This document shows positions 5,804-46,355 of a DNA stretch of 64,000 nt, one piece after another (position 1 is the first letter of the stretch; each line of letters opens with the position of its first letter). This stretch comes from an uncultured Acidimicrobiales bacterium (GTDB lineage Bacteria > Actinomycetota > Acidimicrobiia > Acidimicrobiales > Bin134): NCBI GenBank assembly GCA_951813325.1, contig OX638350.1, forward strand, positions 1,901,954 through 1,965,953. The letters are read 5' to 3'. Position numbers and translations under genes: made by a program. Below the pieces are notes generated by a model. That model searched no databases. It was not told where the DNA came from and saw only the letters and a list, made by a program, of their open reading frames with translations.

Positions 5804-7428
5804 AGGATCCTCGCTGAAGAGGCCGCGCCCGATGAGAACGAAGCTGTCGACCCCCTGTCGGCGATCGCGTGCAGGTCCTCAGCTGAACAGGGATCGATCC
5901 CTACCGATTGGTACAACCGCTCGACCTGGCCGACTGGCCGGCTCATGGGAGTGGCCCACCGCTGGCCGGGGCGAAGCGTCCACAGGCACTCGGTGTCGAT
6001 GGTGTCATTGCGGTCGTCGTAGCTGACGATCTGGGTGACATCGGAGATCACCCGCTCTCCGTGCTCGTTGCGGCCCAGCCACACCAGCAGATGGACGGCG
6101 ATAGCGGTCTGCTGGCGGGCGAACCGGGGATCAGCACCCTCGCTGCACGCGTATGACAGCAGTTTGGCCAGCACCCCGGTCCCAGGCTGGCTGTGCAGGG
6201 TGACCAGGCAGCCGTTGAGCCCGCTGCTCATGGCGTCGAGCAGCGCGAGGGTGCCTTCGCCCCTGGTTTCGCCGATAACCAGCTTGGAGGAGTTGGCCCG
6301 CTTGGCGTCGCGGATGTGGTCGCTCATGGTGAGCTTGCCCACGCCGTCGTTGTTGGCATCCCGGGTGAGGCGCTCGTAGCTGTTGAAGTGGATGCCGTAC
6401 TGGGCCAACCGGAGCTCGGGGGTGTCCTCGATGGTGTCGATCCTCTCCGAGCCATCGACGGAGGCCAAGAGGGCCTGGCAGAGCGTCGTCTTGCCGCCCC
6501 CCATGGCCGCGGCAACCACGATGTTGGCCCGGATCGGTCCCGACACCGCTCCGAGGAGGATCTTCTGCAAACGCGGCCCGGCCACATGGAGGTCGTTCAA
6601 GGTGGCCTTTCCGGCCATATTCGACCTGAGCACCATGGTAGGCGGATGGCACATGAACGCCTCGGCATGGAGCCGCCACCGGTCGCCGAGTCGGATGTCC
6701 AGGCGACTGTCGAGCACATCGAATCGTTGAGGCTGTCCGCCGGAGAAGCTGGCCAGGTGCCGGGCTGTCTCGATCAGCTCGTCGTTGGACGAGAACGGTG
6801 AGTTGCGACGCTCCCGCTGACCCTCCGCTCGGTGGACGATCATGCACTCTCCCCCTCGAATCTGAAACTCCTCAACCCCGGTTTCATCCAGCAGGTCGGC
6901 TAGTCGGGTTTGAGCAGCTTGCGATGCCGACCACAGATGGGTCTCGCGGTCGAGCGGATCGAGCCGGCGGGGCGCGACCGCGGTCCACGCCAGCCTGCGC
7001 CCGAGCCGGTGCAGTCGGCGAAGGTGGTTTCGAGCCGGTTCGGGCGGCACCCAGAGGGTGAAGACCCTTTGGCGGCGCGAGCGTCCCGTGTCCGGCTGGT
7101 CGTCCGACACGACCACCGACACAATCGGGGTCGAGCGGCGCGATCCGGTGTCCATCCGCAGCAAGGAGCGCACGTCGGTGCTGTCGGAGATGGTGATCCA
7201 TAGCACCGCAGCGGCTGATGCGACCGCCGATTCCAGACGGAGCTCCGGCTCGTCGTCGCGCATAGACAGCACCGTGGGATGGCCGGCGGCCGACGCCTGG
7301 TCTACCTCAGCGGGAGAAGTGGCCAAGACCACGCCAGGGGCAGTGCTGGAGATCCCGTCCAACACCCCGTTCATCACCTGCTCAACAGCCTTGGCGTCGA
7401 GCCAGCGGTCTCCAATAGCCAAAAGCAT
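5800..7428 (-). CDS. tadA: Tad secretion ATPase TadA/CpaF with ~150-aa N-terminal extension
   Basis: Walker A 'AAAMGGGKTTLCQAL', VirB11/CpaF-like C-terminal half; start chosen at the ATG (7428) that overlaps the upstream gene stop (ATGA). The ORF track shows a longer 612-aa frame. Confidence 0.85.
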   Translation of the reverse strand: MLLAIGDRWLDAKAVEQVMNGVLDGISSTAPGVVLATSPAEVDQASAAGHPTVLSMRDDEPELRLESAVASAAAVLWITISDSTDVRSLLRMDTGSRRSTPIVSVVVSDDQPDTGRSRRQRVFTLWVPPEPARNHLRRLHRLGRRLAWTAVAPRRLDPLDRETHLWSASQAAQTRLADLLDETGVEEFQIRGGECMIVHRAEGQRERRNSPFSSNDELIETARHLASFSGGQPQRFDVLDSRLDIRLGDRWRLHAEAFMCHPPTMVLRSNMAGKATLNDLHVAGPRLQKILLGAVSGPIRANIVVAAAMGGGKTTLCQALLASVDGSERIDTIEDTPELRLAQYGIHFNSYERLTRDANNDGVGKLTMSDHIRDAKRANSSKLVIGETRGEGTLALLDAMSSGLNGCLVTLHSQPGTGVLAKLLSYACSEGADPRFARQQTAIAVHLLVWLGRNEHGERVISDVTQIVSYDDRNDTIDTECLWTLRPGQRWATPMSRPVGQVERLYQSVGIDPCSAEDLHAIADRGSTASFSSGAASSARIL

Positions 7429-8132: not shown

Positions 8133-9424
8133 GACAGGTCAGAGGCGAGCACCTCGGTGTGCCGGCCACCCTGCCCAGAGGTGTACTTGACCTGCAACTG
8201 CCATTCCCAGAAGCCGCGGCGAGGGATCGCCCAGCGGCATCTTCCGTAGCGGTCCTCCCAGTCGGCGGTCAAAGAGAGCACCCTGTCGGCCGGAATGGTC
8301 CACGGTGGCAGATCAGCGGGCGAGCACCAGACAACCGGGGGGTCTGTGCGGGGAAAGGCCGCTTGGAACCACTGTTTGCGCTGCACGTCCAACCGATCCC
8401 ACAATGCGGCGGCTTGCTGAGCAGGTCCGGCGGCCGCCGAACTGCCGGGAGATCGGAGTTTGGCCAGATCAGAAGGCTCGTAGGGGAGCAGCTCTCGGAA
8501 CAACACGCCCACGGCTTTCGCCGTCCACCGGCAACCGCTCGCCGCGGCATCCACCACGTCGAGCGACTGCCCCGGCCGCTGAGCAATCCAATGTCGGACC
8601 GGGCTGCCAGCCGCCGAGGCCGCCGTCAAGAAGATCTGCCCTCCGGGAGTCTCCGGGTGGTGGTAGCCCGTGAACCCGCGTTCATAGGGAACGATCGACT
8701 CCCATCGCAGACTGCTCAGCAGCCTCTGGCGGGTGGCATCGCTCCACGCGGTGGTGCACACCTTGGGCTCGGGATTCGGATCGGACTCCCAAGGGCAGTT
8801 GCCGGGAATGCGGTCGGTCATGCACGGGGGCAGACAACCGCCGTTGGCGCACGGATTGGAGACGGGGGTGGGCTTGGGTTTCGGGGTGGCAGATGGCGTC
8901 GATTCCGGGGTCGGGGTTGCCGGGGTCGGGGTTGCCGGAGTCGAAGTCGGAGTCGAAGTCGGAGTCGCCGGGGGAGGGCTCTGTTGGCGGTGGTCGTGGT
9001 TGACGGGCACCCGCCGTTGCCCCGACCACCGGTAGTTGATATTCCGATGGCCGTTCCATCTGGTCCAAGTGCCTGGGCCAGTAGGCCGGGGCGTGCTGTC
9101 GTGGGGTCCGTGGGCGCAGTTGTCCGTATTCCGGCACCGACTCTTCGCCGCCGTGGCAATCACGGTTATTCCGCACTGGTCAATGATCTCCACCGTGCAG
9201 TTTGCAGGCACGCGGGCGCGGTAGTGGGTCCAGTAGTTGACGTGGGTCCACGTCTCTGTGCATCCCCGCACGCCGGAAGGGCACCTCCCAGCCCCGCTGG
9301 CGGGAACATCCGTGGTTTTGTCGTGGGCCAGAGCGGGCCGGGAGTCGGGGACCGAAAGCGCAATGCCGACAATGAGCAACACGGCAAGCGCCATCCCGAT
9401 CGCCGTCCGCAGTACCGCCGTCAT
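8081..9424 (-). CDS. Secreted Cys-rich protein with Pro/Thr-rich linker; unknown function, tad-operon associated
   Basis: Internal start at ATG 9424 (MTAVLRTAIGMALAVLLIVGIALS signal/TM) overlapping the upstream stop (ATGA); PT-repeat linker; many Cys. Confidence 0.5.
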   Translation of the reverse strand: MTAVLRTAIGMALAVLLIVGIALSVPDSRPALAHDKTTDVPASGAGRCPSGVRGCTETWTHVNYWTHYRARVPANCTVEIIDQCGITVIATAAKSRCRNTDNCAHGPHDSTPRPTGPGTWTRWNGHRNINYRWSGQRRVPVNHDHRQQSPPPATPTSTPTSTPATPTPATPTPESTPSATPKPKPTPVSNPCANGGCLPPCMTDRIPGNCPWESDPNPEPKVCTTAWSDATRQRLLSSLRWESIVPYERGFTGYHHPETPGGQIFLTAASAAGSPVRHWIAQRPGQSLDVVDAAASGCRWTAKAVGVLFRELLPYEPSDLAKLRSPGSSAAAGPAQQAAALWDRLDVQRKQWFQAAFPRTDPPVVWCSPADLPPWTIPADRVLSLTADWEDRYGRCRWAIPRRGFWEWQLQVKYTSGQGGRHTEVLASDLSWFREPTGYLGPQATLW

Positions 9425-10536
9425 CGGATCGCCTCGAAAGCCCGATAGCCACAGCCGGTGGCTGAATCGCTGGGCGGACGGCTTTCCCGTCCGGTCTGGC
9501 GGGCCCACACATAGCCCAAGAACGCGTGATAGCAGTCGTGGGGGCTGTCGGGGAGGCCGATACCGGCGCTCTCCGCGGCGTGAGCCTCCACGATTCCGAT
9601 GAGGGGTTCCCAGCACGAGGGAAGCGGGTTGCCGGATTCTTCCGAGTCGGTCGGATACCTCGGGTTGGGGTTGGCGGCCACAACCTCTGCGCAGCGATGC
9701 GCCAGCCAACCCGGCGGGCGGGGTGCTGCCGGGTCGTAGCCGACCGACGGGCACACGGCCAAGGGGCGGGCACGGGCATCTCCCTGGAGGGAGTGGGCCG
9801 TTACTGCATCGGCCACGCAGGCCACACCGTCATCGGTCCACCAGTACCGGGCAAAGATCTCGAAGAGGTGGGCGAGTCCGCCCAGACAGGAGTACACGCT
9901 TTGGGCGGACACTGCCCCGTACACCGCATCAGACGTGCTGAGAGCTGGTTCGACGTGGCGGCGAGCGCACCGCTGCACCCAGGAGCGGGATTCTGGGGTG
10001 TTCTCGATGTTCCCGTCCCAATGCCCCTGGAGATCCCTGACTTCATCCAGAGCCGGGTGGTCGACTGGCACCTTGAGGATGACGACTTTGCGGTTGCCGT
10101 CCCAGGTATACACATCGTCGCCGAACTGGTGGAACGTGCTGTTTTGGGCAGCCTCCAGGAGCGAGGCCGCTTCTGCCGGGACCACTTTGTCGGCCTCAGC
10201 GGACACGGCCTTCGGGGTCGCAGGCGGCGGCACGGGCGCAACGCCAGAGCCATTCCGATTTGCCCCAGCATTTGCCAGTGGAACCTCAACGGCATCTGGG
10301 ACCGCGGCCAACGAGGTGGCCGGGACAGGTGTGAGGGCAAGAGTCGGTTCGGATCGGTTGGCGGGCAGCCCCGCGGCGCCGGGCAGACGTGTGCCCGGGT
10401 CGACGGAGAACTCGCGGGGCACACCGCTGGGTGCAGTATTCGGCTCCGAACTCGACCCATTGGAGGCAGGACCGCAGCCCGTGTTGATCAGCAAGAGTGG
10501 GACAACCAAGAATTTGGCTCGCCAAAGGGCACCCAT
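9421..10536 (-). CDS. Putative secreted/lipoprotein, Cys-rich; unknown function, first gene of the tad operon
   Basis: Signal peptide 'FLVVPLLLINTGCG' with possible lipobox Cys; AT-rich promoter-like region upstream (10560-10680). Confidence 0.5.
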   Translation of the reverse strand: MGALWRAKFLVVPLLLINTGCGPASNGSSSEPNTAPSGVPREFSVDPGTRLPGAAGLPANRSEPTLALTPVPATSLAAVPDAVEVPLANAGANRNGSGVAPVPPPATPKAVSAEADKVVPAEAASLLEAAQNSTFHQFGDDVYTWDGNRKVVILKVPVDHPALDEVRDLQGHWDGNIENTPESRSWVQRCARRHVEPALSTSDAVYGAVSAQSVYSCLGGLAHLFEIFARYWWTDDGVACVADAVTAHSLQGDARARPLAVCPSVGYDPAAPRPPGWLAHRCAEVVAANPNPRYPTDSEESGNPLPSCWEPLIGIVEAHAAESAGIGLPDSPHDCYHAFLGYVWARQTGRESRPPSDSATGCGYRAFEAIR

Positions 10537-10674
10537 TTGCCCTCCGTTCGAAATGTCTCGATGGGGGCCTATGAGGCCGATAATCCTGGCTGCCGCACCA
10601 GTGGAGGTGACTTTACTTCATATCCACTCATATGTCTATAGCTAATTTTGATAATTATCATTCCCAACACCCAA

Positions 10675-10698
10675 GAAAAGCGTTGAGAATACATGAAC
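10675..10698. repeat. Left copy of an 18-bp direct repeat (aagcgttgagaatacatg) bounding a ~7.4-kb island
   Basis: Exact 18-nt match with 18089-18110; AT-rich motif in a high-GC background. Confidence 0.7.
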
Positions 10699-11216
10699 CG
10701 TGCTGTCGCTATCCCCGATGGGTTCCAGCGGGCTCAGCGGCTTCGGGATGTTCGTCGGTTTCGCCACTTTCTCACTGGTCATGGGGGTCGGCTCCATCAC
10801 GCGCCGACACTCAAACTAGTTAGAGCAACCGCCCCACTGCTCTGAAATCGCGGTCCTCACACCGTGGAGCGCGTCGTCTCTTGGGCGCGCAATACGGAAA
10901 TCTGCTGCCTGCTGCCTCTAGCTGAACAGCACCCAGGCGACCACGAGGAAGCTCGCCGCCTGGAACATCGTCTCTAAGTTGTCTAGCGCAAACCCGAGCA
11001 CCTGCATTTGCCTGCCTCTAGCGCTGGATGGGTGTTACAGCACCATTGTCCCCAACGCTGTGACAGTTCCCCGATGCCAGTGGCAGCGCCCTTCGAGGAC
11101 CGCGCCGCGGTCCAGAGGTGGATTTGGCGGCTGCTGGAATACTGCGTGCGACGTAGCGGGCACCCGCTGACGGCCTTGGTGAGGGGGTGCCCAGAGACGA
11201 GCAGGATTGACGGACC

Positions 11217-12706
11217 ATGGTCGAGTTGCGGGACTACCAGGTGAAGGCCATAGCCGACATCAACGCACTTTGGCCGTCTGCCAGATCGATCATCCTGCAG
11301 ATGGCGACCGGCGCCGGCAAGACGATCACGGCCTCGGCTTTGCTCAGGGGGAGTTCGAGTCCATTCCCAACCTTGTGGTCGGGTGGATGGTGCATACGGG
11401 CCACCTGCGGAAACAGGCAGCCGAGGCTTTAGATCTGCTCGGTGTGCAATGGGTTGACTGGTCCACTGTTCGTGCCTCACAGCGCCGTTGGGAACCAGGG
11501 CAAGCGCATTGCTTCGGCTCCACGATGTCCCTGCCGCCTGGCCCTGCCACCCGCGACGCATTGCTGATCGTGGACGAATGCCATCGCTCGGCGAGCGACA
11601 CCTACGCCAAGCAGATGAACCGGCGCGGCGGCAGGAACCGTCACCGCATATGGGGCCGGTGCCTGGGGCTGTCGGCGACTCCGGCCCGATACGGCTGGCC
11701 CGATGCAATCAGCCGCTCTCAGGGGTTGTTCGCGCGGCAGTGGGATGCGATGGTCTGCGGCCCGTCGCCCGCCGAACTGGTCGAGGCGGGCCACCTGGCC
11801 GACATTGTGGTGAAGTCCATAGACGAAGCGGGCGGCGACTGGGAGGTGCTGAGACCTGACCCGATGCGCGCCAGCGGGTTCTCGTCGGCATCGGAACAGA
11901 GATGGGAGCGCACGCTGTCGGTCGACGCGGCTGCGGCCATCATCAAGCGCGTGGAGCCGCGCCCGACCATTTGGTTCTGCGCGCCAACAGCGGCAGCAGC
12001 TCAAGTGGTGAAGCTGCTGGGGCGCAGCAGCGCCAAGATCCTCGCCGAAACGTCCTACAGCGAACGTCTGGACCTCTTCGACGCGTTCAGGGAAGGCAGC
12101 ATCGAGCACCTGGTGACCGTGCGGGCACTGCTGGAGGGTACCGATATCCCCGCAGCGAAGCGGATCGTCCAGCTAGCTCCGTCGCGCTCTCGGGTGCTGC
12201 TGTCTCAGGCGGCAGGCCGCGGAAGCCGACCGCCAGGCGTGATGGAGCTATGCGACTTCTCCCAAAGCTGGTCCCACATCGGAGCGCACCCGCTAGACGA
12301 CGTGCCATGGCACCTCTCCCTCGATCCGACTGCCGACTCTGAGCATGTCCATTCGGCCACAGCGCGCACCCGCACCTGCCCCACGCCAGGCTGCGGAACA
12401 GTCATATCGCCGCGCACGCAGCGCCTCTGCCCCACATGCAATTTTGAGGTAGTCCGCCGATGTACGGCGTGCTGGCAGCCCATGTCCGAGGACGCTGAGG
12501 ACGGCACTCACCGCCGCTGCCGCAAATGCGCCGCCGACGAGCGCTCCCTGCACACTGAATGGGCACGGCGCCACGGAACCGAGCCGCTGCCAGATCGCGA
12601 CATCACCGAGGATTCCGGCGGCGAGACGATCGCCGCTAGTTTGGAGGCCCTTGAATCTCTCCGAGCGGCGGCAGCGGTCCTTGAACAGCACACAGGACAG
12701 AGATGA
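11217..12706 (+). pseudogene. SF2 DEAD/DEAH-box helicase with C-terminal double Zn-ribbon, disrupted by a frameshift at a G5 run (~11346-11350)
   Basis: N-terminal motifs 'DYQ' and Walker A 'MATGAGKT' lie in frame 0 (ORF 11217-11432). DEAH 'DECH', 'SAT', 'QAAGRGSR' and a CxxC..CxxC tail lie in the frame of ORF 11207-12706. One extra G would restore ...ALLRGEFESIP... Confidence 0.7.
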
Positions 12707-12894
12707 CTCGCCAAACCGACTCTAAGAGAGGGGAGCAGCGCGTCTTGACCCAGGTCCGACTGCCGGTCGATCTTTGGGAGCAGCTCCGCTACGAGGCCGA
12801 CCAGCGGGACGTGTCGATGAATTTCCTGGTCGTGCGCGCCATCACCCGGTACCTGCCGACCTTGACCCCAGTGGAGGATTTCGTCGATGGCTGA
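12703..12894 (+). CDS. Ribbon-helix-helix (CopG/Arc/ParD-like) DNA-binding protein
   Basis: 'RVLTQVRLPVDLWEQLRYEADQRDVSMNFLVVRAI' RHH pattern; ATG overlaps helicase stop (ATGA). Confidence 0.5.
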   Translation: MTRQTDSKRGEQRVLTQVRLPVDLWEQLRYEADQRDVSMNFLVVRAITRYLPTLTPVEDFVDG

Positions 12895-12927
12895 CGTGCG
12901 CCGACACCGGGTGAATGCCGCGATCTG

Positions 12928-13113
12928 ATGCCCGGAGACCGCTTGGTGTCCCGCTGGCAGAACGGCAAGCGGGTGGCCATCCGAGAGAAGCGCAAAATCG
13001 TGGTGGCAGAGGTGAAGCCGTTGAACGGGAGGACACTCGTCGAACTGGACACAGGCGAGCAGTTCAACTGCCCGTCGGGGTTGATGTTCGGCGTGGACAG
13101 GGAAACGCCATGA
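12928..13113 (+). CDS. Small hypothetical protein
   Basis: ORF track only; basic N-terminus, no recognisable domain. Confidence 0.25.
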   Translation: MPGDRLVSRWQNGKRVAIREKRKIVVAEVKPLNGRTLVELDTGEQFNCPSGLMFGVDRETP

Positions 13114-13250
13114 GCAAACCGCTGGTCAGAGCATCCATCTCACGGGCGGCGCGCTGGTAGTTGAGCCCGAGGACGAGAACCCTCGCCGCCAGTACGCGGG
13201 AACACCACGAGGGAGGAATGCAGCCTTCGGCCAGTGGATGCTCGACACGT

Positions 13251-14711
13251 TCAGTATTTGTGCCATTGGTCGCCGTGAGGAGGTCGGGTACACCTTTTTT
13301 TGCTCTTGACGCCGATGTGCTGACAGCGGCCTGTGCTCGCCGCAGATGGTGGCGGTGCTATCGGCTTGATCTGGTCTGGCAAGTCGGAATCGAACGAATT
13401 GGGAGGCAGCGGGGGGACGCCGGCCATCTGCGACAGGCCAGCGCAATGGGACGCGCGGTATTCGATCCGGTCCGCCAGCTTCCGAATCACCTCGCTGCCA
13501 GCGAATTCAGCGGAAAGCGACTGGAGCGCCTGGTCTAAGGCAGATGGAGTCTGCCTGGCCATGTCCTCTGCCCTGGCAACGGCCTCCTCGCCGTCGCAAC
13601 CCATCGACTCCGCCGTCTCGTGCCATGCCGAATGCCTGTCGGCTTTGGCCACCGTGTACTTCTTCCCGATCTTCATGGCCAGCTTCGTCCTGTTGACCGA
13701 ATGCCAGTCAGGCTCGTAGGGGAGCACAGAGGTGATGTCGTACAGGGGGGCGAACCGCACCGTGCCCCCCCTCAACAGGAAAGAATAGTTCTTGGCGTGG
13801 GCATCGGTCCCGACGATGATCCAGTTGTAAATCAGAGCATCCAGGAACCTGTGGGCATCGCTGTCGGGTTGGGAGCTGTGCTTTCTGATCGACTCCGCGA
13901 TCTGTTGCGGCGAGGGGCCGCCGTCGCCTTGGTATTTGTCGTCGGGGTGGACCCCCAGTGCCTGGCACATGTCCTCTTGGTGGATTCTGGCCGTTTGCCC
14001 GTCCGCGCCAGCAAAGCGGTCGAAGCGACTGATGACGATGCTCTGGATCGGCCCGAAGCTGGCTATCTGGGTTTGAACCGCCAGCAGCCCCAGGTTCGAT
14101 GCTGTTTGCAGGCATACATGCTCATTCAACGCCTGGTCCGGCAAGTCCGGGTCATTCATCGTCGGCTTGATGATGTGCGTGCTCGGCTCCGCACCCATTG
14201 GAATTCCGTACTTCCCCCCAGAGAACACGACGGCCGTTTTCGCTTGAGCCCCAGAGAGGGAGAAACGCCCAAAGTTGCTGCTTTCTGGCCCGTGCCAAGT
14301 CGTTCTGTGGTCCCTGAGGCTCTTGATCAGAGTGACGAGCCGCTCCTCCGTCAGCCAGTCAACGCTGCCTCCTCGCCCCATCAGGCCACCGACTTCATCT
14401 GCTGAGCAGAACTGCACAGCGCCAGCGCAATCATGCCCCACTGGGCTGGCCAGTATCGCTATCGCGCTGCTGCCCTTGATGCCGAACTTGCGTCGCCACT
14501 CTCTCCGCACTTCCAGGTTGTCGGGCAACAGACCCTCCAGCCAGGAGTCAACATCGTGCTGGCCCGCCACAAGCGGAATGCTCACGGAGAGCGGGGTGGA
14601 GAGCGGGTCGGCCAGGTACTCGTCAAAGTAGGAGAACGTAGCTCGGCCCGCACGACCTCCGACTGCTGCGCCTGCGGGCTTGCCATGCACGATGACTTCA
14701 AGACGGGTCAT
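13251..14711 (-). CDS. hipA: HipA-family serine/threonine kinase toxin
   Basis: HipA N-terminal domain, 'SLSGAQAK' and catalytic 'GTDAHAKNYSFLL' motifs. Confidence 0.85.
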   Translation of the reverse strand: MTRLEVIVHGKPAGAAVGGRAGRATFSYFDEYLADPLSTPLSVSIPLVAGQHDVDSWLEGLLPDNLEVRREWRRKFGIKGSSAIAILASPVGHDCAGAVQFCSADEVGGLMGRGGSVDWLTEERLVTLIKSLRDHRTTWHGPESSNFGRFSLSGAQAKTAVVFSGGKYGIPMGAEPSTHIIKPTMNDPDLPDQALNEHVCLQTASNLGLLAVQTQIASFGPIQSIVISRFDRFAGADGQTARIHQEDMCQALGVHPDDKYQGDGGPSPQQIAESIRKHSSQPDSDAHRFLDALIYNWIIVGTDAHAKNYSFLLRGGTVRFAPLYDITSVLPYEPDWHSVNRTKLAMKIGKKYTVAKADRHSAWHETAESMGCDGEEAVARAEDMARQTPSALDQALQSLSAEFAGSEVIRKLADRIEYRASHCAGLSQMAGVPPLPPNSFDSDLPDQIKPIAPPPSAASTGRCQHIGVKSKKRCTRPPHGDQWHKY

Positions 14712-14997
14712 CTGGGCCCTTTGCGAATTGGTCCAGGTGGTCGTCCAGCTGGAACCCAGATCGGTCTATCGGGTGTATGGCTAGGTCGCAGTCAAGAGCC
14801 TTCAGCAGCTTCAGCAGCGTGGATGCCTTGAGGTCGGCCCTTGCAGACTCGACCGCGGAAATTTGCGGGCGGGAAACGCCGGACCTGTCTGACAGCTCTG
14901 CCTGATTCCACCCCAACTCCTTCCGCGCCTGCCTGAGGGCAGCGCCGAGCCGAGCCGCAGAACTAAGCCCAAGTTGCACACGACGAACAGGTGTCAT
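14698..14997 (-). CDS. hipB: HipB-like XRE-family HTH antitoxin
   Basis: HTH 'LRQARKELGWNQAELSDRSGVSRPQISAVE'; overlaps hipA start by 14 nt. Confidence 0.8.
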   Translation of the reverse strand: MTPVRRVQLGLSSAARLGAALRQARKELGWNQAELSDRSGVSRPQISAVESARADLKASTLLKLLKALDCDLAIHPIDRSGFQLDDHLDQFAKGPDDPS

Positions 14998-15197
14998 TGC
15001 TGTTCCTGCCCCCTTTGTCCCCTAAGGACTACATTTCACCATTCAACATGTTTTGTAGTCTGCACATTACAATACTGTCTGAACCGCAGAATGTAAAGAG
15101 AAAGCTACAACAGCGGCTTTGCCGCGCTCACCCTGTTCGTGCGAGATTGCCCGAGCCTGCTCTCTTGATTGCCCCGACAACAGCCGGGTACCCGCAA

Positions 15198-15380
15198 TCA
15201 CCTCGTCAGCCTCTTCCCGCTCAGCGCCAAAACCAGCCCGCACACGGCATTCTCCAAGCGGGCGTTAAATTCCTGGCCTTCTTCAGTTTCCTCGCCCTTC
15301 AACGGGATGTTGCAACTGTCCCGGTCCCACTGACCCACGATCACCTCTAGATCTTCAGGGTCTATTTTCAACTCGAACAT
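15198..15380 (-). CDS. Small acidic hypothetical protein (60 aa, MFELKIDPEDLEVIVGQWDRD...)
   Basis: Internal ATG of ORF 15198-15821 located in a lower-GC patch; speculative. Confidence 0.2.
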   Translation of the reverse strand: MFELKIDPEDLEVIVGQWDRDSCNIPLKGEETEEGQEFNARLENAVCGLVLALSGKRLTR

Positions 15381-15871
15381 TGTCCTCCTCCTTCGGTCAG
15401 GGCGGCTTCCCGCCATTGTCCCGACCGATCCCCCCACCACTCCGTCTCCCGACCCCTTTGCCGTCTCCGAGCCTCCGCCGCGGCTTTGCCCGCCGGACCA
15501 GATCGGCGTGGACGGCGACGGCGACGGGAAGATCGACGCCTGCCAGGACAGAGACGAAGAAACCGCCGAGCTGCTCGACGCCGGAGCGGGTCCCGGGACA
15601 CGACAGCGAGCACCCGCCATCCACCCCAGAGCCCGTCGAGCCCGGGAACCGCACCGTGTGGACCATAGACGCGGCGACGGGCGCGCCGGTCGTGTCGCGG
15701 CTGTCGCCGCAGGGCTCGACGATACTGGCGGGAACTCAGCCCGTCGACTACATACCCGCTGCCGACCCGGTGTGTTGCGTCTGACTTCGCGCGACGGTTT
15801 CCCGGTTTTTTCAGGCCGCATGTGGCAGGGTTGAGTCGCAGGCCAAGAATGTCGCCGTCGAGGCCGAGAGG

Positions 15872-17647
15872 GTGATGGGCTGCAGCAAGGAGATGTGGCA
15901 GATGTCGTGCCTGGCCCGCCAGGGCGACCTGGGCAGATTCTCCGAGCTGTCTCCTTCGCAGCGCCGCTCGGAGCTTGTCGACCCGCTGGTGGGGGACATG
16001 TTCGACGACCTCGTGTGCGAGGTGGACGAGCTTGTCGCCGAGGAGCGCGGGGCCAGCCTCGAAGCGGCGAGCAAGCTGGCGGACGCCGAGTCCGGTGCCG
16101 ACGACCGCGCTGACGCCGAGGCCGCGCTCAAGTCTGCTGCCGCCGAGGCGAAGAAGGCGGAATCGGACCTGGCGGAGATAATCGCTTTGAACGCCCGCGT
16201 AGCCGAGCACGAGGCGGACATCTGCAGGCTGGCCGAGGCCGAGCGGGCCGAAGATGAGCTGGCCGAGACAGCAGCCCGCAGAGAGCGGCGCAAGCGGGAA
16301 GCCGAGGAATTGGAGTAGTGCATCGAGGAGCGCACGGCGCTTCTGGCCGCGTCGGAGTCCGACGTGGAGAGGCTGGCCGAGGCCGAGCGCACAGCTGGCG
16401 AAGCCCATGCTTCCGCTGCCGCCGCCAGCGAGAAGGCTCTGCGGAGGGCTGCTGAGGCAGCGAGCCCTGCCGCGGCGGCCAAGCGGCGGCTGAAAGCGCT
16501 CGTGGCCGAAGACGGGTCTGAGTGCTGGGTGTGCGGGTCGGACCTGTCCGACGACCGCAAGGACGAGCTGGTGCGCGGGATGAAGCGGGACATCCTGGTG
16601 GCGAGGAAGCGGGACGAAGCGGCGAAAGCCGCCAGGCGCAGCGACCTCTCAGAAGCGGAGCGCGCCAGGTCTCGGAAGGAGCGGTCCGCACGCGATCTGG
16701 AGAGCGAGATCGCCGCAGCGGAGGCGAAGCTGGGCGCGCTGGCCGACGAGTCGGGCGAGGCGACTGTCGCATCCGAGCTGGCCGCGGGCGCGCCCGCGCT
16801 GCGCGAGAAGGTCTCGGCGATCCCCGAGGAGGTCCGGCGTGTGATCGGCGACGGGGGAGTGGACGACAAGGAACTAGAAGCGGCCCGCCGCCGCGCCGCT
16901 TCGGCCCAGCAGTGGGTGGGGCAGGCCAAGTCGGGGGTTTCGAAGGCGAGAGCTTCCGAGAAGTCCCTGCCCGCCCTGGGCGAGGCTGCGGACGAGGCCG
17001 GGGTGTCGGAGAAGGCGGCCGACCTGTTGAAGGACTTTCTGAGGCCCGCGGGGATACCCCACCTGCTGATGTCGCGCCGCACCGCCGAGATCGAGCGGAA
17101 AGTCAACGCAGTGCTCGCTTCGCTGAGGACGGCGGGGGAGGGACGGTCCCTGGAGATGCGGTTCCGCACGTCGATGCCGAACTCGGGGAACCCCGCGCTC
17201 GGCATCGAAGTCGATCTGGGCGACGACGGGTGGAGGGACTACGCGCAGATGTCGGGCGGGATGCGGGCGAGGGTGGACATCTCGCTGAGGGTCGGGCTGT
17301 CCCAGGCGGCCGGGGTCCGGTGCAGGATGTTGATCATCGACGAGGGCGCGGCCATGCTCGACGAGGAGGGAGTCGACTCGCTGCTGGAGGTGGTCAGGGT
17401 GCTCATCGACTCGGGTTTGGTGGACTTGGTGTTCCTGGTCACCCACGACGAGCGGTTGAAGGGGACTCTGCCTGCGACGGTGGAGGTCGGCACCGACGAG
17501 GGCGCGGCGGGCACGGCCGCCTGGTGGCCACGCACACGGAGGTCCCCCGCAGGAAGGCAGCAGCATGACGCGCAGCCGCCGCCCCGCGAAGTTCACCGCT
17601 CCCCGGCGCACAGAGCGCCGAATCTGTCGGTGGCGACAACGTGGTAG
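15872..17647 (+). pseudogene. SMC/SbcC/Rad50-like ATPase remnant: coiled-coil plus C-terminal ABC signature/Walker B/D-loop/H-loop only; N-terminal Walker A head absent; internal stop at 16316
   Basis: 'MSGGMRARVDISLRVGLSQAAGVRCRMLIIDEGAAMLD...VFLVTHDERL' in ORF 16364-17647; the upstream coiled-coil ORF 15872-16318 is separated by a TAG; no Walker A in any frame upstream. Confidence 0.55.
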
Positions 17648-18030
17648 AAGCTCCGCCACTTTCGACCATCTTGAGTCGCCACCTCGACTTCGAGCCCGCG
17701 GTCCAGCTTGAGGCCCTTGTCGTTCACGCGCACACCCCACTCCCCGTTGTCCAGCCGGGCGGTGGATCCATGCCAGAGGGCCATTCCAACACGGTAGATG
17801 CGGGCGCGGACCTCTTCGCCTGACGCCCTCTGAGCGACGCGTCGTGGACGCCGCCAGCAGCGCTGTGTCGAAGCAATCACAAGCACTCCGCTGTTATCCC
17901 AGGTCAGCGGCTCGCGCGCCGCCATCGTTTGACCGCTCGTGGACACCTGGTGGACAGGCTCCAAAACTGATGTGTGCTGCATCCTCACCTGAGTCGGCTG
18001 TAGTCCCCTGCTGCCGGGCTCTTCGCACAT
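17593..18030 (-). CDS. Hypothetical protein
   Basis: ORF track only. Confidence 0.25.
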   Translation of the reverse strand: MCEEPGSRGLQPTQVRMQHTSVLEPVHQVSTSGQTMAAREPLTWDNSGVLVIASTQRCWRRPRRVAQRASGEEVRARIYRVGMALWHGSTARLDNGEWGVRVNDKGLKLDRGLEVEVATQDGRKWRSFYHVVATDRFGALCAGER

Positions 18031-18088
18031 CCGAAACCGCGTTCAGAAGAGGAAAGGCCCGGGCCGCTGATGACTGCCGTAACGCCCG

Positions 18089-18110
18089 AGAGAAGCGTTG
18101 AGAATACATG
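18089..18110. repeat. Right copy of the 18-bp direct repeat (aagcgttgagaatacatg)
   Basis: Exact match to 10677-10694. Confidence 0.7.
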
Positions 18111-18208
18111 TTATGTAAAGTTAATGGGAAGTTTCATGGCGCAATCGGCTTCGTCTGGTGTCCGATCTCGTCGTAGTTGGCGAAATCTCACACCCTTGGC
18201 GAATCGTC

Positions 18209-18553
18209 TCAGACGAGTGTCGAGTTGTCGAATGTCGGCTCGTACTTGCACGACGAGTCGGCGTAGTAGATCACCACGTCGAACCCGAGCGCATGCGGCA
18301 ACACGAAAGACGGGCAACCGGCGTCTCCGGTGCGGATCAGGTGCTGGATGTCGTCGTCGATGATCTGGGCACAGTCAAAGGCGACGAACTCGCGAATTGT
18401 CACCGGGGGGTCGGCCGATGAGAGGTGTTCCACAAGAGGCTGGAACTCTTTAAGCTCTTCTGGTGGGACGTCCTCCATCGACTCAACCCATCCAACGGCT
18501 TCCCCAACGAGCCGCTGGCCGCCCTTGCAACCCCGGACCAAAAAGACGGCCAA
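18209..18553 (-). CDS. Hypothetical protein (acidic, Cys-containing)
   Basis: ORF track; lower-GC surroundings. Confidence 0.3.
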   Translation of the reverse strand: MAVFLVRGCKGGQRLVGEAVGWVESMEDVPPEELKEFQPLVEHLSSADPPVTIREFVAFDCAQIIDDDIQHLIRTGDAGCPSFVLPHALGFDVVIYYADSSCKYEPTFDNSTLV

Positions 18554-18617
18554 CTGATCCTCTCGCTATTTTGATACCGGCCATCATGGCCGATCTGTCG
18601 CGACACTCATACTGTTT

Positions 18618-19334
18618 GTGTTCTCCCGTCGGGGCGGGTCTGACCCGAGTCGCGACCGGCCTTTTGTGCCTTTCGGCGGAGTTCACCGACCCTTGGGAGG
18701 TTCTATGACACCGAGGGGGTATCCCGCAGAGTTCCGAAAGCGTGTGGTCGATCTGGTAGAGGCGGGCCGTCCGGTCGCCCAGGTCGCGGCGGAACTGGGG
18801 ATCAGCGATCAGTCGATCTACACGTGGCGGCGGCAGGCGCGTTTCGACGCCGGCGTTGAGCCGGGCATGAGCACGGAGGAGCATGCGGAGTCAGCGGCGC
18901 TGCGAAAGCGGGCTCGCGAGCTTGAGTGTGAGTTGGCGATTCACCGGCGGGCGACTGAGCTGTTGAAGGCCGATGTCGATTCAAAATGGTCCGCAGCCAT
19001 CCGAGTGATGGCCGCGGAAGGGCTTCCGATCGAGAAGGCATGTTCCGTGTTGGGAGTGTCGGTGTCTGGCTACTACAGCTGGCTGAGGCGCCCACCGTCG
19101 GCGCGATCGATCAGACATGCGTGGTTGAGTGAGGTGGTTGGGCAGGTCCACGCCAGCTCCCGTGAGACCAACGGGGCAAAGCGAGTTCACGCGGAGTTGA
19201 CCCCTGGCCTGGGGAGGGGCCGGAACGCCGACCTGGCTACCTACGATGACACAAATGGGGGTCAAACTGTCTCAAGAACGTGGCGAACCCCAGGACGCAT
19301 TCGCCAAGTGCCCGAGAGCGGACAATTTGGCTGA
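18618..19334 (+). mobile_element. IS3-family transposase remnant: OrfA (HTH) fused in-frame to the first ~65 aa of OrfB, DDE catalytic domain missing
   Basis: 'MTPRGYPAEFRKRVVDLVEAGRPVAQVAAELGISDQSIYTWRRQ' (IS3 OrfA) then 'CSVLGVSVSGYYSWLRR...GAKRVHAEL' (OrfB N-terminus), then unrelated tail and stop. Confidence 0.7.
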
Positions 19335-19460
19335 CCGGGTCTCGCCATCGCGCTTATCGACCTGTCGCCCTTGCATGACTGCTGCCGACGCGATCAGAGT
19401 TAGACTAGGCCCCGAATTCCGCTACCGTTGTCCGCTTGGCGGACAGATCATCGACAATTG

Positions 19461-20639
19461 ATGAAGACTCCCACCGACTACGACAACCCTGGCTACGCGC
19501 GAGCCCGTGCTCTCGAACCTAATATGGCCGAGAACTACGTCGCGCACACCATGATCGGCGACCCCCTGGCTGATGCAGCGGTCGAGGTTCTCGCCACACT
19601 GAAGCGTTCGGAATCCAGCCGGATTTTCTCGGCCTACATGAGCGTCCCCGACGGGAAAGAGCTTCCTGACGCGCCACCAGAGGTCCACGCGCTCATTGAC
19701 GATGTCATCACTCCACCAGACTGGCTCGATCTTCCCGCTTTGACTGCCGGCATTCACATGTTCCATCGGAATCGAAAGATGGTTGTGGCCGGGATGCTGG
19801 CCGGAGTTCTCGTGGAGGGCTTCTCCACCAACATCAGTGAGTCGTTCTTTATTACCGGCCGTCTGCGCGACCAGGGTGTGCGGCGCCTTCAGCAAAACAA
19901 CCGCCATATGGTGGATATCTTCCTTCCCGGCGGTATGGGCCCATACGGTGACGGGTGGAGGCTCTCCTTTCGGATCCGCCTCATCCATGCCCAGGTCAGG
20001 TACCTGCTCAAGAACTCAGAGGACTGGGACGTGGATGCTCTTGGCGTTCCTTTGAGCGCAGCCCATTGCGGCTACGCGATCACCGCGTTTTCCGCTCGGC
20101 TGCTCAAGCACATGAGGAGTCTGGGAGCAGTTTTCAGCGAGGAAGAGGCCGCGAGCTTCATGGCGACGTGGCGCTATTCGGGGCTTCTCATGGGGATTCC
20201 TGAGTCGATCCTCTTCCACGGCGAAGAAGACGCTCTGAAGCTCTACGAGATCGGCACCATGTGCGAGCCAGAGCCCGGCGCTTCCTCTGTCGTTCTGGCC
20301 AACTCGCTGGTCAACTCGGCGCCCCTCGTCGTTGGCATCAACGACTCTGCCAAGGGACAGAAACTCTCGCAGTACGTCTATAAGGTGTCGCGAGCGCTCA
20401 TCGGAGACACACTGGCCAATCAGTTGAACTATCCCAAGCAGTCCACCTTCGGCGTACTCCCTTGGTTCCGCGTACAGGCCAGGTACGACCGCTTCACTCT
20501 TCGGTTCTTCCCCAAGATGGCCCGCAAGAGCAACGTTTCCAACTTCACTACGCTTTTGTCAGGATCGTGGTTCCACGACGAGGGCATCACCTACCACTTG
20601 CCCGACCATGTCTACGCCGAGGAGTCCAGCGAATGGTGA
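19461..20639 (+). CDS. DUF2236 (MpaB/Lcp-like) oxygenase family protein
   Basis: Conserved 'FFITGRLRDQGVRRLQQNNRHMVDIFLPGGMGPYGDGWRLSFRIRLIHAQVR' block shared with its paralog at 23197-24366. Confidence 0.7.
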   Translation: MKTPTDYDNPGYARARALEPNMAENYVAHTMIGDPLADAAVEVLATLKRSESSRIFSAYMSVPDGKELPDAPPEVHALIDDVITPPDWLDLPALTAGIHMFHRNRKMVVAGMLAGVLVEGFSTNISESFFITGRLRDQGVRRLQQNNRHMVDIFLPGGMGPYGDGWRLSFRIRLIHAQVRYLLKNSEDWDVDALGVPLSAAHCGYAITAFSARLLKHMRSLGAVFSEEEAASFMATWRYSGLLMGIPESILFHGEEDALKLYEIGTMCEPEPGASSVVLANSLVNSAPLVVGINDSAKGQKLSQYVYKVSRALIGDTLANQLNYPKQSTFGVLPWFRVQARYDRFTLRFFPKMARKSNVSNFTTLLSGSWFHDEGITYHLPDHVYAEESSEW

Positions 20640-20707
20640 GCGCAATCTTCTCGGGGCGACCGACCCATTGGACCGGTCGCAAGGCGGGCTCGCACTAAGG
20701 TCAATTC

Positions 20708-23155
20708 ATGTTCCGCTGGCAGGCCCGCAGAATTCAGAAGTCTCCGAGACTTGCACTCGCGAGCATCATCGCTGTGACAATCCTTCTTCTCGCCGGTTTC
20801 CTCGTCCAGGAAGCCCCCGAGGTGCCCGACCCCCTTGGTGCCTTCCTACCGTCCGGCAGCGAGTTGGCTGTAGCCGTTGACGCCGTCCAGGAGAGCTTCC
20901 CGGCATCAGGTGACACCAGGACTGTCCAAGTTCTCGCCAAAGGGCGCATTCTCGACGCCGAGGCCATTCAGGAGATGAGGGAGCTTCAGGACAGGATTTT
21001 CAGCGATCCCGAAGTCGCTCCGTTCCTCGCCGACCATCCCGTGACGGGGTACGTCCAGATCATCGAGGGGGTACTGCTCTTACAGGGCCTCAACCCGGCC
21101 TCTGCTTCCGATGCCGATATTGGGGCAGCCCTCGACCTGATGGCCAGTTCGCCAGAACTTGCCGCCCCGAGCGATTTGTTCAACAGCATCGTCAACCGGG
21201 ATGCCGCCGGTGGGCAGTACTCCGGCCTTTCTCTGATCACCCTCAAATACACCGGCGACGACGTCGGTCTGCGAGACGCACAGCTGAGGATCCACGACAT
21301 AGCGGATGCTGCAAGCTCGACTTCATTGGAATTGGCGGTTGTCAGCACAGCGGGAAACGAAGACGAGATCAACGACGTCAACCGGGTAAGCACACCTGTG
21401 CTCACACTCGGCGCTCTGGCGCTGATCGCCCTTTTGCTCACAGCCTTCTACCGCACGCAGTCAGATGTCCACATCACGATGATTGGGCTAGGCATCACCC
21501 TGGCATGGACCCTCGGTGCTCAAGCATGGCTGTCGCCCGGTGGTGCGGGCATTCTCGACCCCGACAACATCTTCATTGCGATTGTGCTGGTCCTCCTCAT
21601 CAGCTTGAGTGTGGACTATGCGCTACAGATCACGAGCCGTTATCGAGAGGCGCTGGCGCTCGAAGCAGATGAGGACGCGCCCACCCGGTCCATCGGCCAC
21701 GCGGTCAGGGAATCGGGCGTGCCGGTACTGCTCGCGGCAGGCACGACCGCTGTCAGCCTCCTCATTAACCTCACCAGCAAGTTCAGGCCGATAGCCGAAT
21801 TCGGCATACTCGCCTCCATCGGAGTCATTTCGGGCTGGATCGTGATGACCACCTTCGTACCGGCTGCCCGGTTGCTGTTGGATCGCAAGCGCGCGGCCGA
21901 TGGCCGGGAGCTGATCACTAGGCCCGTCGCAGATACCGTCCCCGGTACCGCTGCGACCCTGTCCCGGACCGCAGCGGTGATTGTGCGCCGCCCGTGGTCG
22001 ATTTTGGGCGGCGCCGTCGTGGTGACGATCCTGGCTATCTTCGCGGCGACAAGCGTCGACACAACCACCACTCCCACTGATTTCCTCCCCCGCGACTCCG
22101 ACGCGCTCGAGAACATTACTTTCATCGAAGACAGCTTCGGAGCAGGCGCCTCCACGCTCACGGTTCTCATCGAGGCCGATCTCGACACTGCTCACTCCAC
22201 CCGTGATTTACTCGATTACTCTGCGTCCCTCTCCGCTCCCGAAACGCGCCCCGAGAGTATGGTGGGCCCTCCCATCAACTCAGCGGTGATGCTGCTCTCC
22301 GACTGGGCCGATGACAGCGGGCAACCGGGTGACAAGTACGACCCAGCCATCGCGGCGGCATTCGCCGATTTGAACTCCGGCTCATCGATACCTGACGACC
22401 GGGCCCTTAGTACCTGGACACTCCTGGAGGACATCGACCCCGCGAGCTTCGCATCGGTTGTCGATCTGCGTTCCGACGGCCCTGATCGCACCATTCTCCA
22501 GATCCCAGTGGCGGCCGACAGCGCCACGCTCCTTCCTCAGCTGCTCGACGAACTCGACGATCTATGGGGTGGCGATCCCGGGCAGACTACCGCAACAGGC
22601 GGCGACACTTTGGCCGCTCTAATCAACTCAGAGCTCGGTCGCAGCCAAACCCTGACCGTTCCCCTCACCATCGCTGCGGCCATGGCAATCCTATTGCTCT
22701 ACTTCGGCATCAGCGAACGCCGTCCCTCCCTTGGAGTGATCAGCGTTCTGCCCATAGCGATGGTGGTGTTTTGGCTGTTGGCCACCATGTGGGTATTTGG
22801 GATCTCATACAACTTGGCGACAGCCCTGGTGGTGGCACTGACGATCGGTATCGGTGTGGACTACACCATCCATCTCACGCACCGGTTCATCGAGGCTGAA
22901 AAGGAACTCCGTGATTCCTCCCTTGCGCTCAGGCGCGCTATGACGACGACGGGGGGAGCGCTCGTAGCAAGTGCTCTAACCACCGCCCTTGGACTCCTGG
23001 TCCTGCTCTTCTCCCCGCTCCGGCCGATTCAGGAACTGGGGGCACTCACCTCGGCCACCATCCTATTGACGCTCATTTCCACGTTCACCGTGCTGCCTCC
23101 GTTGCTGATCCTGTGGTCTAGGTACCACCACCGCAAGGCTGCGGCGTACCAATGA
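20708..23155 (+). CDS. MMPL-family RND-type membrane transporter
   Basis: 815 aa; two 6-TM bundles each followed by a large extracytoplasmic domain; MMPL-like sequence pattern. Confidence 0.8.
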   Translation: MFRWQARRIQKSPRLALASIIAVTILLLAGFLVQEAPEVPDPLGAFLPSGSELAVAVDAVQESFPASGDTRTVQVLAKGRILDAEAIQEMRELQDRIFSDPEVAPFLADHPVTGYVQIIEGVLLLQGLNPASASDADIGAALDLMASSPELAAPSDLFNSIVNRDAAGGQYSGLSLITLKYTGDDVGLRDAQLRIHDIADAASSTSLELAVVSTAGNEDEINDVNRVSTPVLTLGALALIALLLTAFYRTQSDVHITMIGLGITLAWTLGAQAWLSPGGAGILDPDNIFIAIVLVLLISLSVDYALQITSRYREALALEADEDAPTRSIGHAVRESGVPVLLAAGTTAVSLLINLTSKFRPIAEFGILASIGVISGWIVMTTFVPAARLLLDRKRAADGRELITRPVADTVPGTAATLSRTAAVIVRRPWSILGGAVVVTILAIFAATSVDTTTTPTDFLPRDSDALENITFIEDSFGAGASTLTVLIEADLDTAHSTRDLLDYSASLSAPETRPESMVGPPINSAVMLLSDWADDSGQPGDKYDPAIAAAFADLNSGSSIPDDRALSTWTLLEDIDPASFASVVDLRSDGPDRTILQIPVAADSATLLPQLLDELDDLWGGDPGQTTATGGDTLAALINSELGRSQTLTVPLTIAAAMAILLLYFGISERRPSLGVISVLPIAMVVFWLLATMWVFGISYNLATALVVALTIGIGVDYTIHLTHRFIEAEKELRDSSLALRRAMTTTGGALVASALTTALGLLVLLFSPLRPIQELGALTSATILLTLISTFTVLPPLLILWSRYHHRKAAAYQ

Positions 23156-23196
23156 CCCTGTTTCGGCACAACGCGTCCGCCCGAGACCTCAGCGGC

Positions 23197-24366: not shown

Positions 24367-24490
24367 GAATCAGATCTTTCTGACAGATGTTGTTCTTCGC
24401 GCCCGATCACGAGGCACGATTCCAATGTTGGGACTCTCAACATTCTACAGCGATCCGGTGATCACTGCAGCTTAGAGCCACGTCGCGTGT

Positions 24491-46280: not shown

Positions 46281-46355
46281 TGGCTCGGGAGGGAGGACTC
46301 GAACCCCCAATGACGGGACCAGAACCCGGTGTGTTGCCAATTACACCACTCCCGA
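46281..46355 (-). tRNA. tRNA-Gln (anticodon CTG, inferred)
   Basis: Cloverleaf folded by hand: acceptor TCGGGAG/CTCCCGA, D arm GTGT-AATTGGCA-ACAC, anticodon loop TTCTGGT, T-loop GGTTCGAGTCC, encoded CCA; sits beside gltX. Confidence 0.65.

Follow-up and report, generated by a model that had tools for sequence, protein, structure and literature searches.

Elements at the dif site

XerC and XerD, the host recombinases, resolve chromosome dimers at dif, a site at the replication terminus. Integrative mobile elements that exploit Xer (IMEXs) integrate via these two host enzymes and encode no integrase (PMC5357621). In the attachment site (attP) of the satellite phage TLC-phi, the XerC side and the central region are highly homologous to dif and the XerD side is highly divergent; difGGI, the site of the 57-kb gonococcal island (GGI), shows the same arm pattern (PMC5357621). 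Here, we describe a 7.4-kb island beside the tad/Flp-type pilus operon of an uncultured Acidimicrobiales bacterium (Actinomycetota; assembly GCA_951813325.1, contig OX638350.1, positions 1,901,954 to 1,965,953), which most likely is a decayed IMEX of the TLC/GGI type, putatively inserted at dif by host XerC/XerD. The 64,000-nucleotide stretch analyzed is called the window, positions are counted from its first base, and related loci are designated by L and a number.

The GGI of Neisseria, like the island in the window, is a stable non-phage island without an integrase. Both are located at dif, between directly oriented copies of dif and of a dif-like site that retains the XerC arm and central region but diverges in the XerD arm (PMC5357621). 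The host of the GGI is a proteobacterium, whereas the window comes from the uncultivated, sponge-associated Acidimicrobiia, and its cargo is a type IV secretion system within 57 kb, in contrast to the hipBA genes, helicase, and SbcC-like remnant within 7.4 kb of decayed DNA described here, for which dependence on Xer is predicted. TLC-phi of Vibrio cholerae likewise shares the arm pattern of its attP and integration by host XerCD (PMC5357621) but is a filamentous satellite phage encoding the Xer activation factor XafT, none of which was found in the window's island. The island also resembles a cis-mobilizable element (CIME), i.e., a remnant island that lacks recombination and transfer genes and keeps both att-like sites, and its relatives share one end and differ elsewhere, as after decay or accretion (PMC5704250). 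In contrast to CIMEs, which derive from elements with their own integrase and need an incoming one, the recombinase acting on the window's island would presumably be host XerCD. Finally, the attachment site of the Legionella element LME-1 is reported to be the dimer resolution site, recognized from conservation and GC skew as in the window, although in another system and another host (PMC9765430).

An exact direct repeat encloses the island

The island was first noticed in a prediction made from the nucleotide sequence alone (here, the original prediction), which reported an exact 18-bp direct repeat at its ends. The repeat exists, with its left copy placed one base too low (10677-10694) in that prediction: an exact-match search located AAGCGTTGAGAATACATG exactly twice in the window, on the forward strand at 10678-10695 and 18093-18110. 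The accompanying judgment that a chance origin was very unlikely agrees with an expectation of 0 copies and with 0 matches in 100 shuffles, and no third copy was found in the 64-kb window even with 3 mismatches allowed. The distance from copy to copy is 7,415 bp, and the inserted DNA spans 10696-18092. The GC content of the window was measured at 65.3%, slightly below the ∼67% originally given for the genome.

Outward, similarity between the copies extends to 30 nt with an identity of 27/30 (10666-10695 versus 18081-18110), the 3 mismatches all being transitions. The host-side extension at 10666-10677 (+) is thus 9/12 identical to its element-side counterpart at 18081-18092 (+). At its opposite end, the repeat breaks off sharply after ...CATG.

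The repeat is part of a predicted chromosomal dif site

Read together with the 11 bases that follow it, the right copy gives AGCGTTGAGAA-TACATG-TTATGTAAAGT, a sequence arranged in the 11-6-11 pattern of dif: an XerC arm at 18094-18104, a central region at 18105-18110, and an XerD arm at 18111-18121, all on the forward strand. The 18-mer therefore consists of 1 base, the 11-bp XerC arm, and the 6-bp central region. Seed dif sequences for comparison were taken from Kono et al. (PMC3025954), namely, those of Escherichia coli (XerC arm GGTGCGCATAA, central region TGTATA, XerD arm TTATGTTAAAT), Bacillus subtilis (ACTTCCTAGAA, TATATA, TTATGTAAACT), and Frankia alni (CACGCCGATAA, TGCACA, TTATGTCAAGT). 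The XerD arm is identical to those of B. subtilis and F. alni at 10/11 positions each and to that of E. coli at 9/11; over the whole site, the identities are 19/28, 19/28, and 17/28, respectively. A degenerate consensus built from the three seeds matched the 64 kb only at 18101-18121, with 0 matches expected.

A dif site is located at the shift point of GC skew (PMC3025954). The skew is +0.018 to the left of the island and −0.033 to its right, its sign flips from plus to minus at the site, and every one of the eleven 4-kb bins between 20 and 64 kb is negative. Of the 21 related loci in which the site was located, 19 show this flip there. The 27-nt site was present at the same place in 15/15 related loci first surveyed, which were obtained from a scan of species-representative genomes plus three relatives and belong to sponge-symbiont Acidimicrobiia, and it was single-copy in 14 of them, although the neighboring protein is just 42 to 67% identical in these relatives. 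Within the loci, the site was found in every related one surveyed and was single-copy wherever there was no island. Because it resembles the seeds in sequence, is kept among relatives, and lies at the GC-skew shift point, the conserved 28-bp site (18094-18121) is identified as the chromosomal dif. Such a site was predicted by Kono et al. in 66/66 Actinobacteria (PMC3025954).

The site lies ∼45 nt upstream of the tad promoter, and the original prediction had treated the motif simply as an odd low-GC string near a promoter; it corresponds instead to a conserved housekeeping recombination site. Our first reading, of an operator or activator site of the tad promoter, was likewise superseded by the dif match. 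The proximity of dif to the promoter looks like conserved synteny more than regulation.

Relatives with empty and occupied sites

The window is ∼99.4% identical to eight metagenome contigs from its own species, of which the 7 that span both ends carry both repeat copies. Homologues of the first tad gene point to sponge-associated Acidimicrobiia, some of them named Candidatus Poriferisocius. Among the relatives, L010, L011, and others have the MPAB/DUF2236 gene directly beside the tad operon and no island; L010 and L011 contain a single ATAACTTTACATAAC(A/G)TGTATTCTCAACGTT ∼150 nt upstream of the first tad gene. In the window, the right copy retains the MPAB-side flank of the ancestral site and the left copy retains its tad-side flank. 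The flanks of a single site are split between the two copies and are therefore as predicted for insertion into one ancestral site.

The original prediction had proposed a search among relatives for an empty site with one copy of the 18-mer, and L027, found in a metagenome scan, is such a case: the exact 18-mer occurs once, and both flanks are ∼79% identical to those of the window. In one other species, the empty locus L026, which came from that metagenome scan as well, and the occupied locus L024 are 96.2% identical up to the site. An 8.3-kb insert occupies the same position in L012, a chromosome of 4.0 Mb in which the first protein of the tad operon shares 61% identity with that of the window. 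Presence or absence of the island at dif is thus precise among relatives (the L026/L024 pair and L027), and the junction is common to islands in at least three species. The DNA between the repeat copies is an insertion, and its junction is precise and recurrent, in keeping with the inserted DNA and attL/attR-like ends originally proposed.

These data bear on whether any mobility is involved, since the 18-mer could instead be an ordinary motif of a regulator or promoter that happens to precede two transcription units. Both copies do lie upstream of minus-strand genes, and conservation is strong ∼45 nt upstream of the tad promoter. However, the motif has just 2 copies in 64 kb, is found once in each of 14 among the 15 relatives first surveyed, and in the window holds complementary flank halves of a single ancestral site. 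The empty sites refute this explanation, to which we attach next to no probability: the empty-site relatives do not carry the enclosed genes in conserved order without repeats, as the original prediction had considered, but lack those genes.

The junction coincides with the border of the XerD arm

At the left end of the island, arm scores delimited a pseudo-dif site at 10679-10706 (+), with the XerC arm (10679-10689) and central region (10690-10695) as in dif, followed by a degenerate XerD arm, AACCGTGCTGT (10696-10706), that matches the published seeds at only 3 to 4 of 11 positions. Compared by eye with the window's own dif, the pseudo-dif is identical at 11/11 positions of the XerC arm, 6/6 of the central region, and 4/11 of the XerD arm. 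The two sites lie on the same strand and flank the island in direct orientation.

The position of the junction was compared among islands with an nhmmer profile of the conserved upstream region. The tad-side match begins at profile position 15 in both the window and L012 and at position 13 in L033, and position 15 in the window is the exact border between the central region and the XerD arm. In all three islands, homology breaks at this border, and the internal DNA is unrelated at that end; the junction is thus identical, within 2 nt, in at least three islands and in several species. The homology between the repeat copies stops right at the predicted XerD cleavage point, where the central region meets the XerD arm. 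The pseudo-dif sites of L012 and L033 also have divergent XerD arms, and their central regions differ by 2 to 3 bases. In L012, the central region of the pseudo-dif is CACACG, of the host type (several empty relatives have TACACG), and that of the full dif is TACATG, as in element-side copies elsewhere. These sequences fit an exchange at the XerD-side border and hint at one, short of proof.

The recurrence of the junction also speaks to a one-off event that was not site specific, such as homologous or illegitimate recombination or a local duplication, with the repeat as a by-product. Such an event would accommodate the similarity that extends past the 28-bp site into the host flank in the window and L012, and the terminus region is variable, with insertion sequence (IS) remnants and a rearrangement to the right of 20640. 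It would not be expected to recur within 2 nt in at least three islands of unrelated content in several species, or to leave an empty and an occupied locus of the same species that differ precisely at the site, and we regard it as very unlikely.

Proposed mode of integration

The island is best explained, with good though not full confidence, as the decayed IMEX introduced above. Its ancestor would have been a circular element whose dif-like attP had a well-matched XerC arm and the same 6-bp central region as dif but a poorly matched XerD arm. Recombination between attP and dif by the host Xer enzymes, with no need for an integrase of its own, would leave the tad side with a hybrid pseudo-dif (10679-10706) and the MPAB side with a complete dif (18094-18121). 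Recombination would thus place the XerC arm together with the central region at both ends, where they are seen as an 18-bp repeat. The corresponding junction of the empty site would read ...CCCAAGAAAAGCGTTGAGAATACATG followed by TTATGTAAAGTTAATGG..., and that of the circle would read ...GCCCGAGAGAAGCGTTGAGAATACATG followed by AACCGTGCTGTCGC.... The degenerate XerD arm would limit excision, as reported for the GGI, and hipBA may add stability. That XerC/XerD catalyzed the reaction, that the intermediate was circular, and the order in which the strands were exchanged are inferred.

The original prediction attributed the missing integrase to decay. Since IMEXs use host XerC/XerD, the lack of an integrase in the island is expected and need not reflect a loss; the repeat corresponds to the XerC arm and central region of dif. 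A classical integrative element whose own tyrosine or serine integrase was later deleted, with an 18-bp att core overlapping dif, would today be a CIME, the category described for remnants that have no integrase but still possess attL and attR (PMC5704250). The decay of the island would suit such a history, as would L030, where a distant relative of the element has a Resolvase-domain gene and a TrwC relaxase gene less than 6 kb away. On the other hand, the core equals the XerC arm plus the central region base for base, the homology break falls on the XerD-arm border in three islands, and no integrase was found within up to 12.6 kb of the six related islands sampled; the L030 recombinase and relaxase lie across dif and probably belong to another element. 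A dedicated integrase that was later lost need not be invoked, and we consider it unlikely.

Several observations weigh against integration by host Xer enzymes at dif. The skew and uniqueness of the site rest on local sequence, up to 64 kb per locus, rather than on whole chromosomes. XerC, XerD, and FtsK were not found among the 10 candidate open reading frames (ORFs) of the window that were scanned, all of which are housekeeping genes and none a recombinase. The gene content of the related islands L028 and L029 covers sampled parts that stop short of the far pseudo-dif ends, and a distant relative of the element, L030, adjoins a TrwC relaxase and a serine recombinase. In addition, the similarity between the two ends continues past the XerC arm, for 12 nt in the window and ∼20 nt in L012 (∼20/21 identical beyond the arm; z = 6.2 versus shuffles), into host-lineage-specific sequence, an extension that is not predicted by the textbook IMEX model.

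If the island is an IMEX, an integrase-free island can be cleanly bounded and polymorphic by means of the host Xer enzymes. Xer-exploiting elements are mostly known from Proteobacteria and as filamentous phages and would now include an element of Actinomycetota with toxin-antitoxin and defense-like cargo. The analysis also locates the predicted dif, and hence the replication terminus, for uncultivated sponge symbionts (Ca. Poriferisocius and relatives), and direct repeats of a dif half-site may serve as a simple signature for such islands in metagenome-assembled genomes.

Related islands share the dif-proximal end

The dif-proximal end is homologous in six islands (window, L012, L024, L025, L028, and L029), which are 80 to 88% identical there and encode a small conserved protein followed by an SbcC-like ATPase, the latter intact in L024, L028, and L029 (683 to 690 amino acids [aa]). 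Further genes of the fuller islands encode an SbcD-like nuclease and a DNA methyltransferase, along with an operon with a T2SSE-family ATPase; matches of the related islands to PHROGs comprised the methyltransferase and the SbcD-like nuclease only. Homologues of the small protein lie beside dif in L012, L024, L025, L028, and L029 and also in L030. No family or fold was recognized for this att-adjacent protein, whose AlphaFold model has a pLDDT of 58 and for which neither sequence nor fold gave a PDB match at an E value of <0.1. Neither a XafT-like (DUF3653) domain nor phage genes were found in the scanned island proteins, and no integrase was found in the L012 island or in those parts of L024, L028, and L029 that were sampled. 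Compared with L024, L028, and L029, the window's island has lost everything past its truncated SbcC-like gene, and its hipBA, ribbon-helix-helix (RHH)-like, and helicase genes, on the pseudo-dif side, have no counterpart in the related islands seen. Of the ancestral element, the window would thus retain two genes, the small one beside dif and the truncated SbcC-like one.

The same gene block occurs in L030, whose host has a GC content of 47%, and again ends beside a dif-like site. There (12726-12785), a full dif is followed after 4 nt by another dif-like site, whose XerD arm is degenerate, and beyond these lie genes for a nucleotidyltransferase, a TrwC relaxase, and a serine recombinase. The relaxase and the recombinase probably belong to a neighboring element because they lie across the host dif and the second dif-like site.

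The TrwC gene, ∼1.7 kb from the site in L030, drew attention to relaxase (HUH) integration, in which the hairpin TACAT-AAC-ATGTA and TTCTCAAC would form an oriT-like nick site for a TrwC-type enzyme. The nic region of R388 resembles GTATTCTC. TrwC can insert incoming DNA into a 17-bp oriT-like target (PMC3264647). This candidate was rejected as extremely unlikely: the site is present in element-free chromosomes too, at the GC-skew switch, and its best match is dif, not oriT; the sharp edge of the repeat coincides with the end of the Xer central region rather than with a point 8 nt past the hairpin; and no relaxase was found in the sampled Acidimicrobiia islands.

As an extension of host-mediated integration, the island could be what is left of an IMEX family that has not been described and spans phyla (Acidimicrobiia with 65% GC and the 47% GC host of L030), with fuller members that carry an SbcCD-like pair, a DNA methyltransferase, and a T2SSE-ATPase operon. 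In this family, the small, all-beta protein invariably encoded beside the attachment site could be a new Xer activation or directionality factor, and the element-side copy of the site would have been rematched to 12 to 20 nt of the dif flank of each host beyond the XerC arm. This proposal is speculative, and we think it rather improbable; if true, a host-matched flank beyond the XerC arm would be a behavior not described for IMEXs.

Two further features of the related sites were observed. A second CGTTGAG(A/G)A motif is present in L024, L025, and L029 where the window and L012 have flank similarity; in the fuller islands, it lies 13 nt outside the XerC arm, in the element-side dif flank (L024, 9805-9830; L029, 12572-12599), which thus carries tandem XerC-arm-like repeats. 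In L030, a 12-nt palindrome, TGAGAATACTCA, equivalent to the end of the XerC arm plus the central region, recurs as an exact copy at 7264-7275, inside a 295-aa element gene.

Gene content and decay of the island

The genes between the repeats largely match the inventory of the original prediction, i.e., a helicase, an RHH protein, hipBA, low-GC patches, and an SMC-like fragment, and the element has decayed as proposed there, with a truncated SbcC-like gene and a frameshifted helicase. From the pseudo-dif end, the first is the frameshifted SF2 helicase gene at 11207-12706 (+), with Helicase_C and weak ResIII matches and a PbeA-like assignment in PADLOC; the N-terminal part with Walker A lies in the ORF at 11217-11432. 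The frameshift is polymorphic, since some same-species contigs (L003, L004, L005, and L007) keep an intact gene of 496 aa. The gene is split in the window, L001, and L006 and truncated in L002. The frameshift could be a recent inactivation or a homopolymer assembly error. The next ORF (12703-12894, +) encodes the small protein initially called RHH, for which the RHH/CopG-like Pfam matches are weak and below threshold.

A HipA-family kinase toxin (13251-14711, −; HipA_C, 5e-51; Couple_hipA) and a HipB-like helix-turn-helix (HTH) antitoxin (14698-14997, −; HTH_3, 3e-15) are encoded by ORFs that overlap by 14 nt and together have the features of a HipBA type II toxin-antitoxin system. They are followed by a low-GC patch (0.54) at ∼15000-15400.

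The SbcC/SMC-like ATPase remnant (15824-17647, +) has lost ∼96 N-terminal residues, including Walker A, and is divided by an in-frame stop at 16316-16318 into ORFs at 15872-16318 and 16364-17647. Its DNA is 84% identical to the intact 689-aa gene of L024, and it aligns to residues 97 to 225 and 325 to 667 of the intact L029 homologue. The small conserved protein beside the dif-proximal end is encoded at 17593-18030 (−) as a 145-aa ORF, with a conserved core of ∼65 aa (∼17593-17790); the protein has homologues in the related islands and is a marker of this element family.

No recombinase domain was detected by Pfam searches of the main candidate island ORFs and of six-frame translations of the two noncoding gaps at 10690-11260 and 14980-15900, and searches for known RNA families returned nothing but subthreshold chance matches in 10400-18400. 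For a plasmid or phage origin, megablast gave 0 matches in PLSDB, and the 18-mer was not found in IMG/VR.

Sequences flanking the island

The island sits between the tad operon promoter and the DUF2236/MMPL cluster, as originally described. The first gene of the tad/Flp-type pilus operon occupies 9421-10536 (−) of the host flank, and a promoter scan placed the operon promoter at 10610-10638 (−), with a −35 hexamer (TAGACA), a 17-nt spacer, and a −10 hexamer (TAAAGT). The promoter is intact on the host XerC-arm side, and both hexamers are kept in 13 relatives. A highly conserved 5′ leader, GCCAGGGTTATCGGCCTCGCAGGCCCCCATCGAGA, with a GGCC...GGCC hairpin, lies between the promoter and the start codon in the window (10537-10600, −) and in all related loci; it has no Rfam match and may be a regulatory leader. 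By eye, the whole tad promoter had appeared to be copied at the dif-proximal end, an idea that was dropped when local alignment against shuffles showed that, apart from L012 compared with itself, similarity past the site was not significant.

The MPAB/DUF2236 gene (19428-20639, +), which directly adjoins dif in relatives, lies on the opposite flank, with the MMPL gene (20708-23155) to its right. The same-species contigs are 99.4% identical up to 20640. Beyond this point, positions 380-4040 of L001 to L004, compared with 20640-24400 of the window, carry a second MPAB gene and an MMPL gene in inverted order at just 75.8% identity. The change to the right of 20640 is a strain-level rearrangement or replacement beside the terminus.

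No tRNA or tmRNA target, which the original prediction had suggested looking for, was found near the island; the sole tRNA gene of the window is a tRNA-Gln gene at 46281.

Outside the island, on the XerD-arm side, an IS remnant spans 18186-19317 between inverted arms at 18186-18204 and 19299-19317, and the IS3-type OrfA remnant seen originally just past the right repeat (18618-19334) is confirmed, with only its HTH part left. The TTCGCCAA motifs of the IS remnant are common to the empty-site relatives L009, L027, L031, and L032. The sequence (C/G)TGAGAnnnTTCGCCAA is present in 4 to 5 copies with a spacing of ∼22 nt, ∼40 to 160 nt from the XerD arm of dif, in the window (18150-18250 and 19299-19317), L009 (9700-9800), L027 (3125-3200), and L031 and L032 (upstream of dif). 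In the window, the copies have an inverted arm as their partner and, with it, flank the IS3-type OrfA remnant, and L009 has an IS30-like transposase gene at the corresponding place. In several lineages, IS elements seem to have inserted next to dif.

In L015, L018, and L023 (Ca. Poriferisocius), each locus contains 1 to 2 copies of ACATAAAGGGGTCACCC(C)CAGATG..CCAGGGGAACC, ∼20 to 110 nt outside the XerD arm of dif. Each copy starts with ACATAA, which is also the end of the XerD arm, and the copies may represent either a small repeat element or scars left by previous Xer events.

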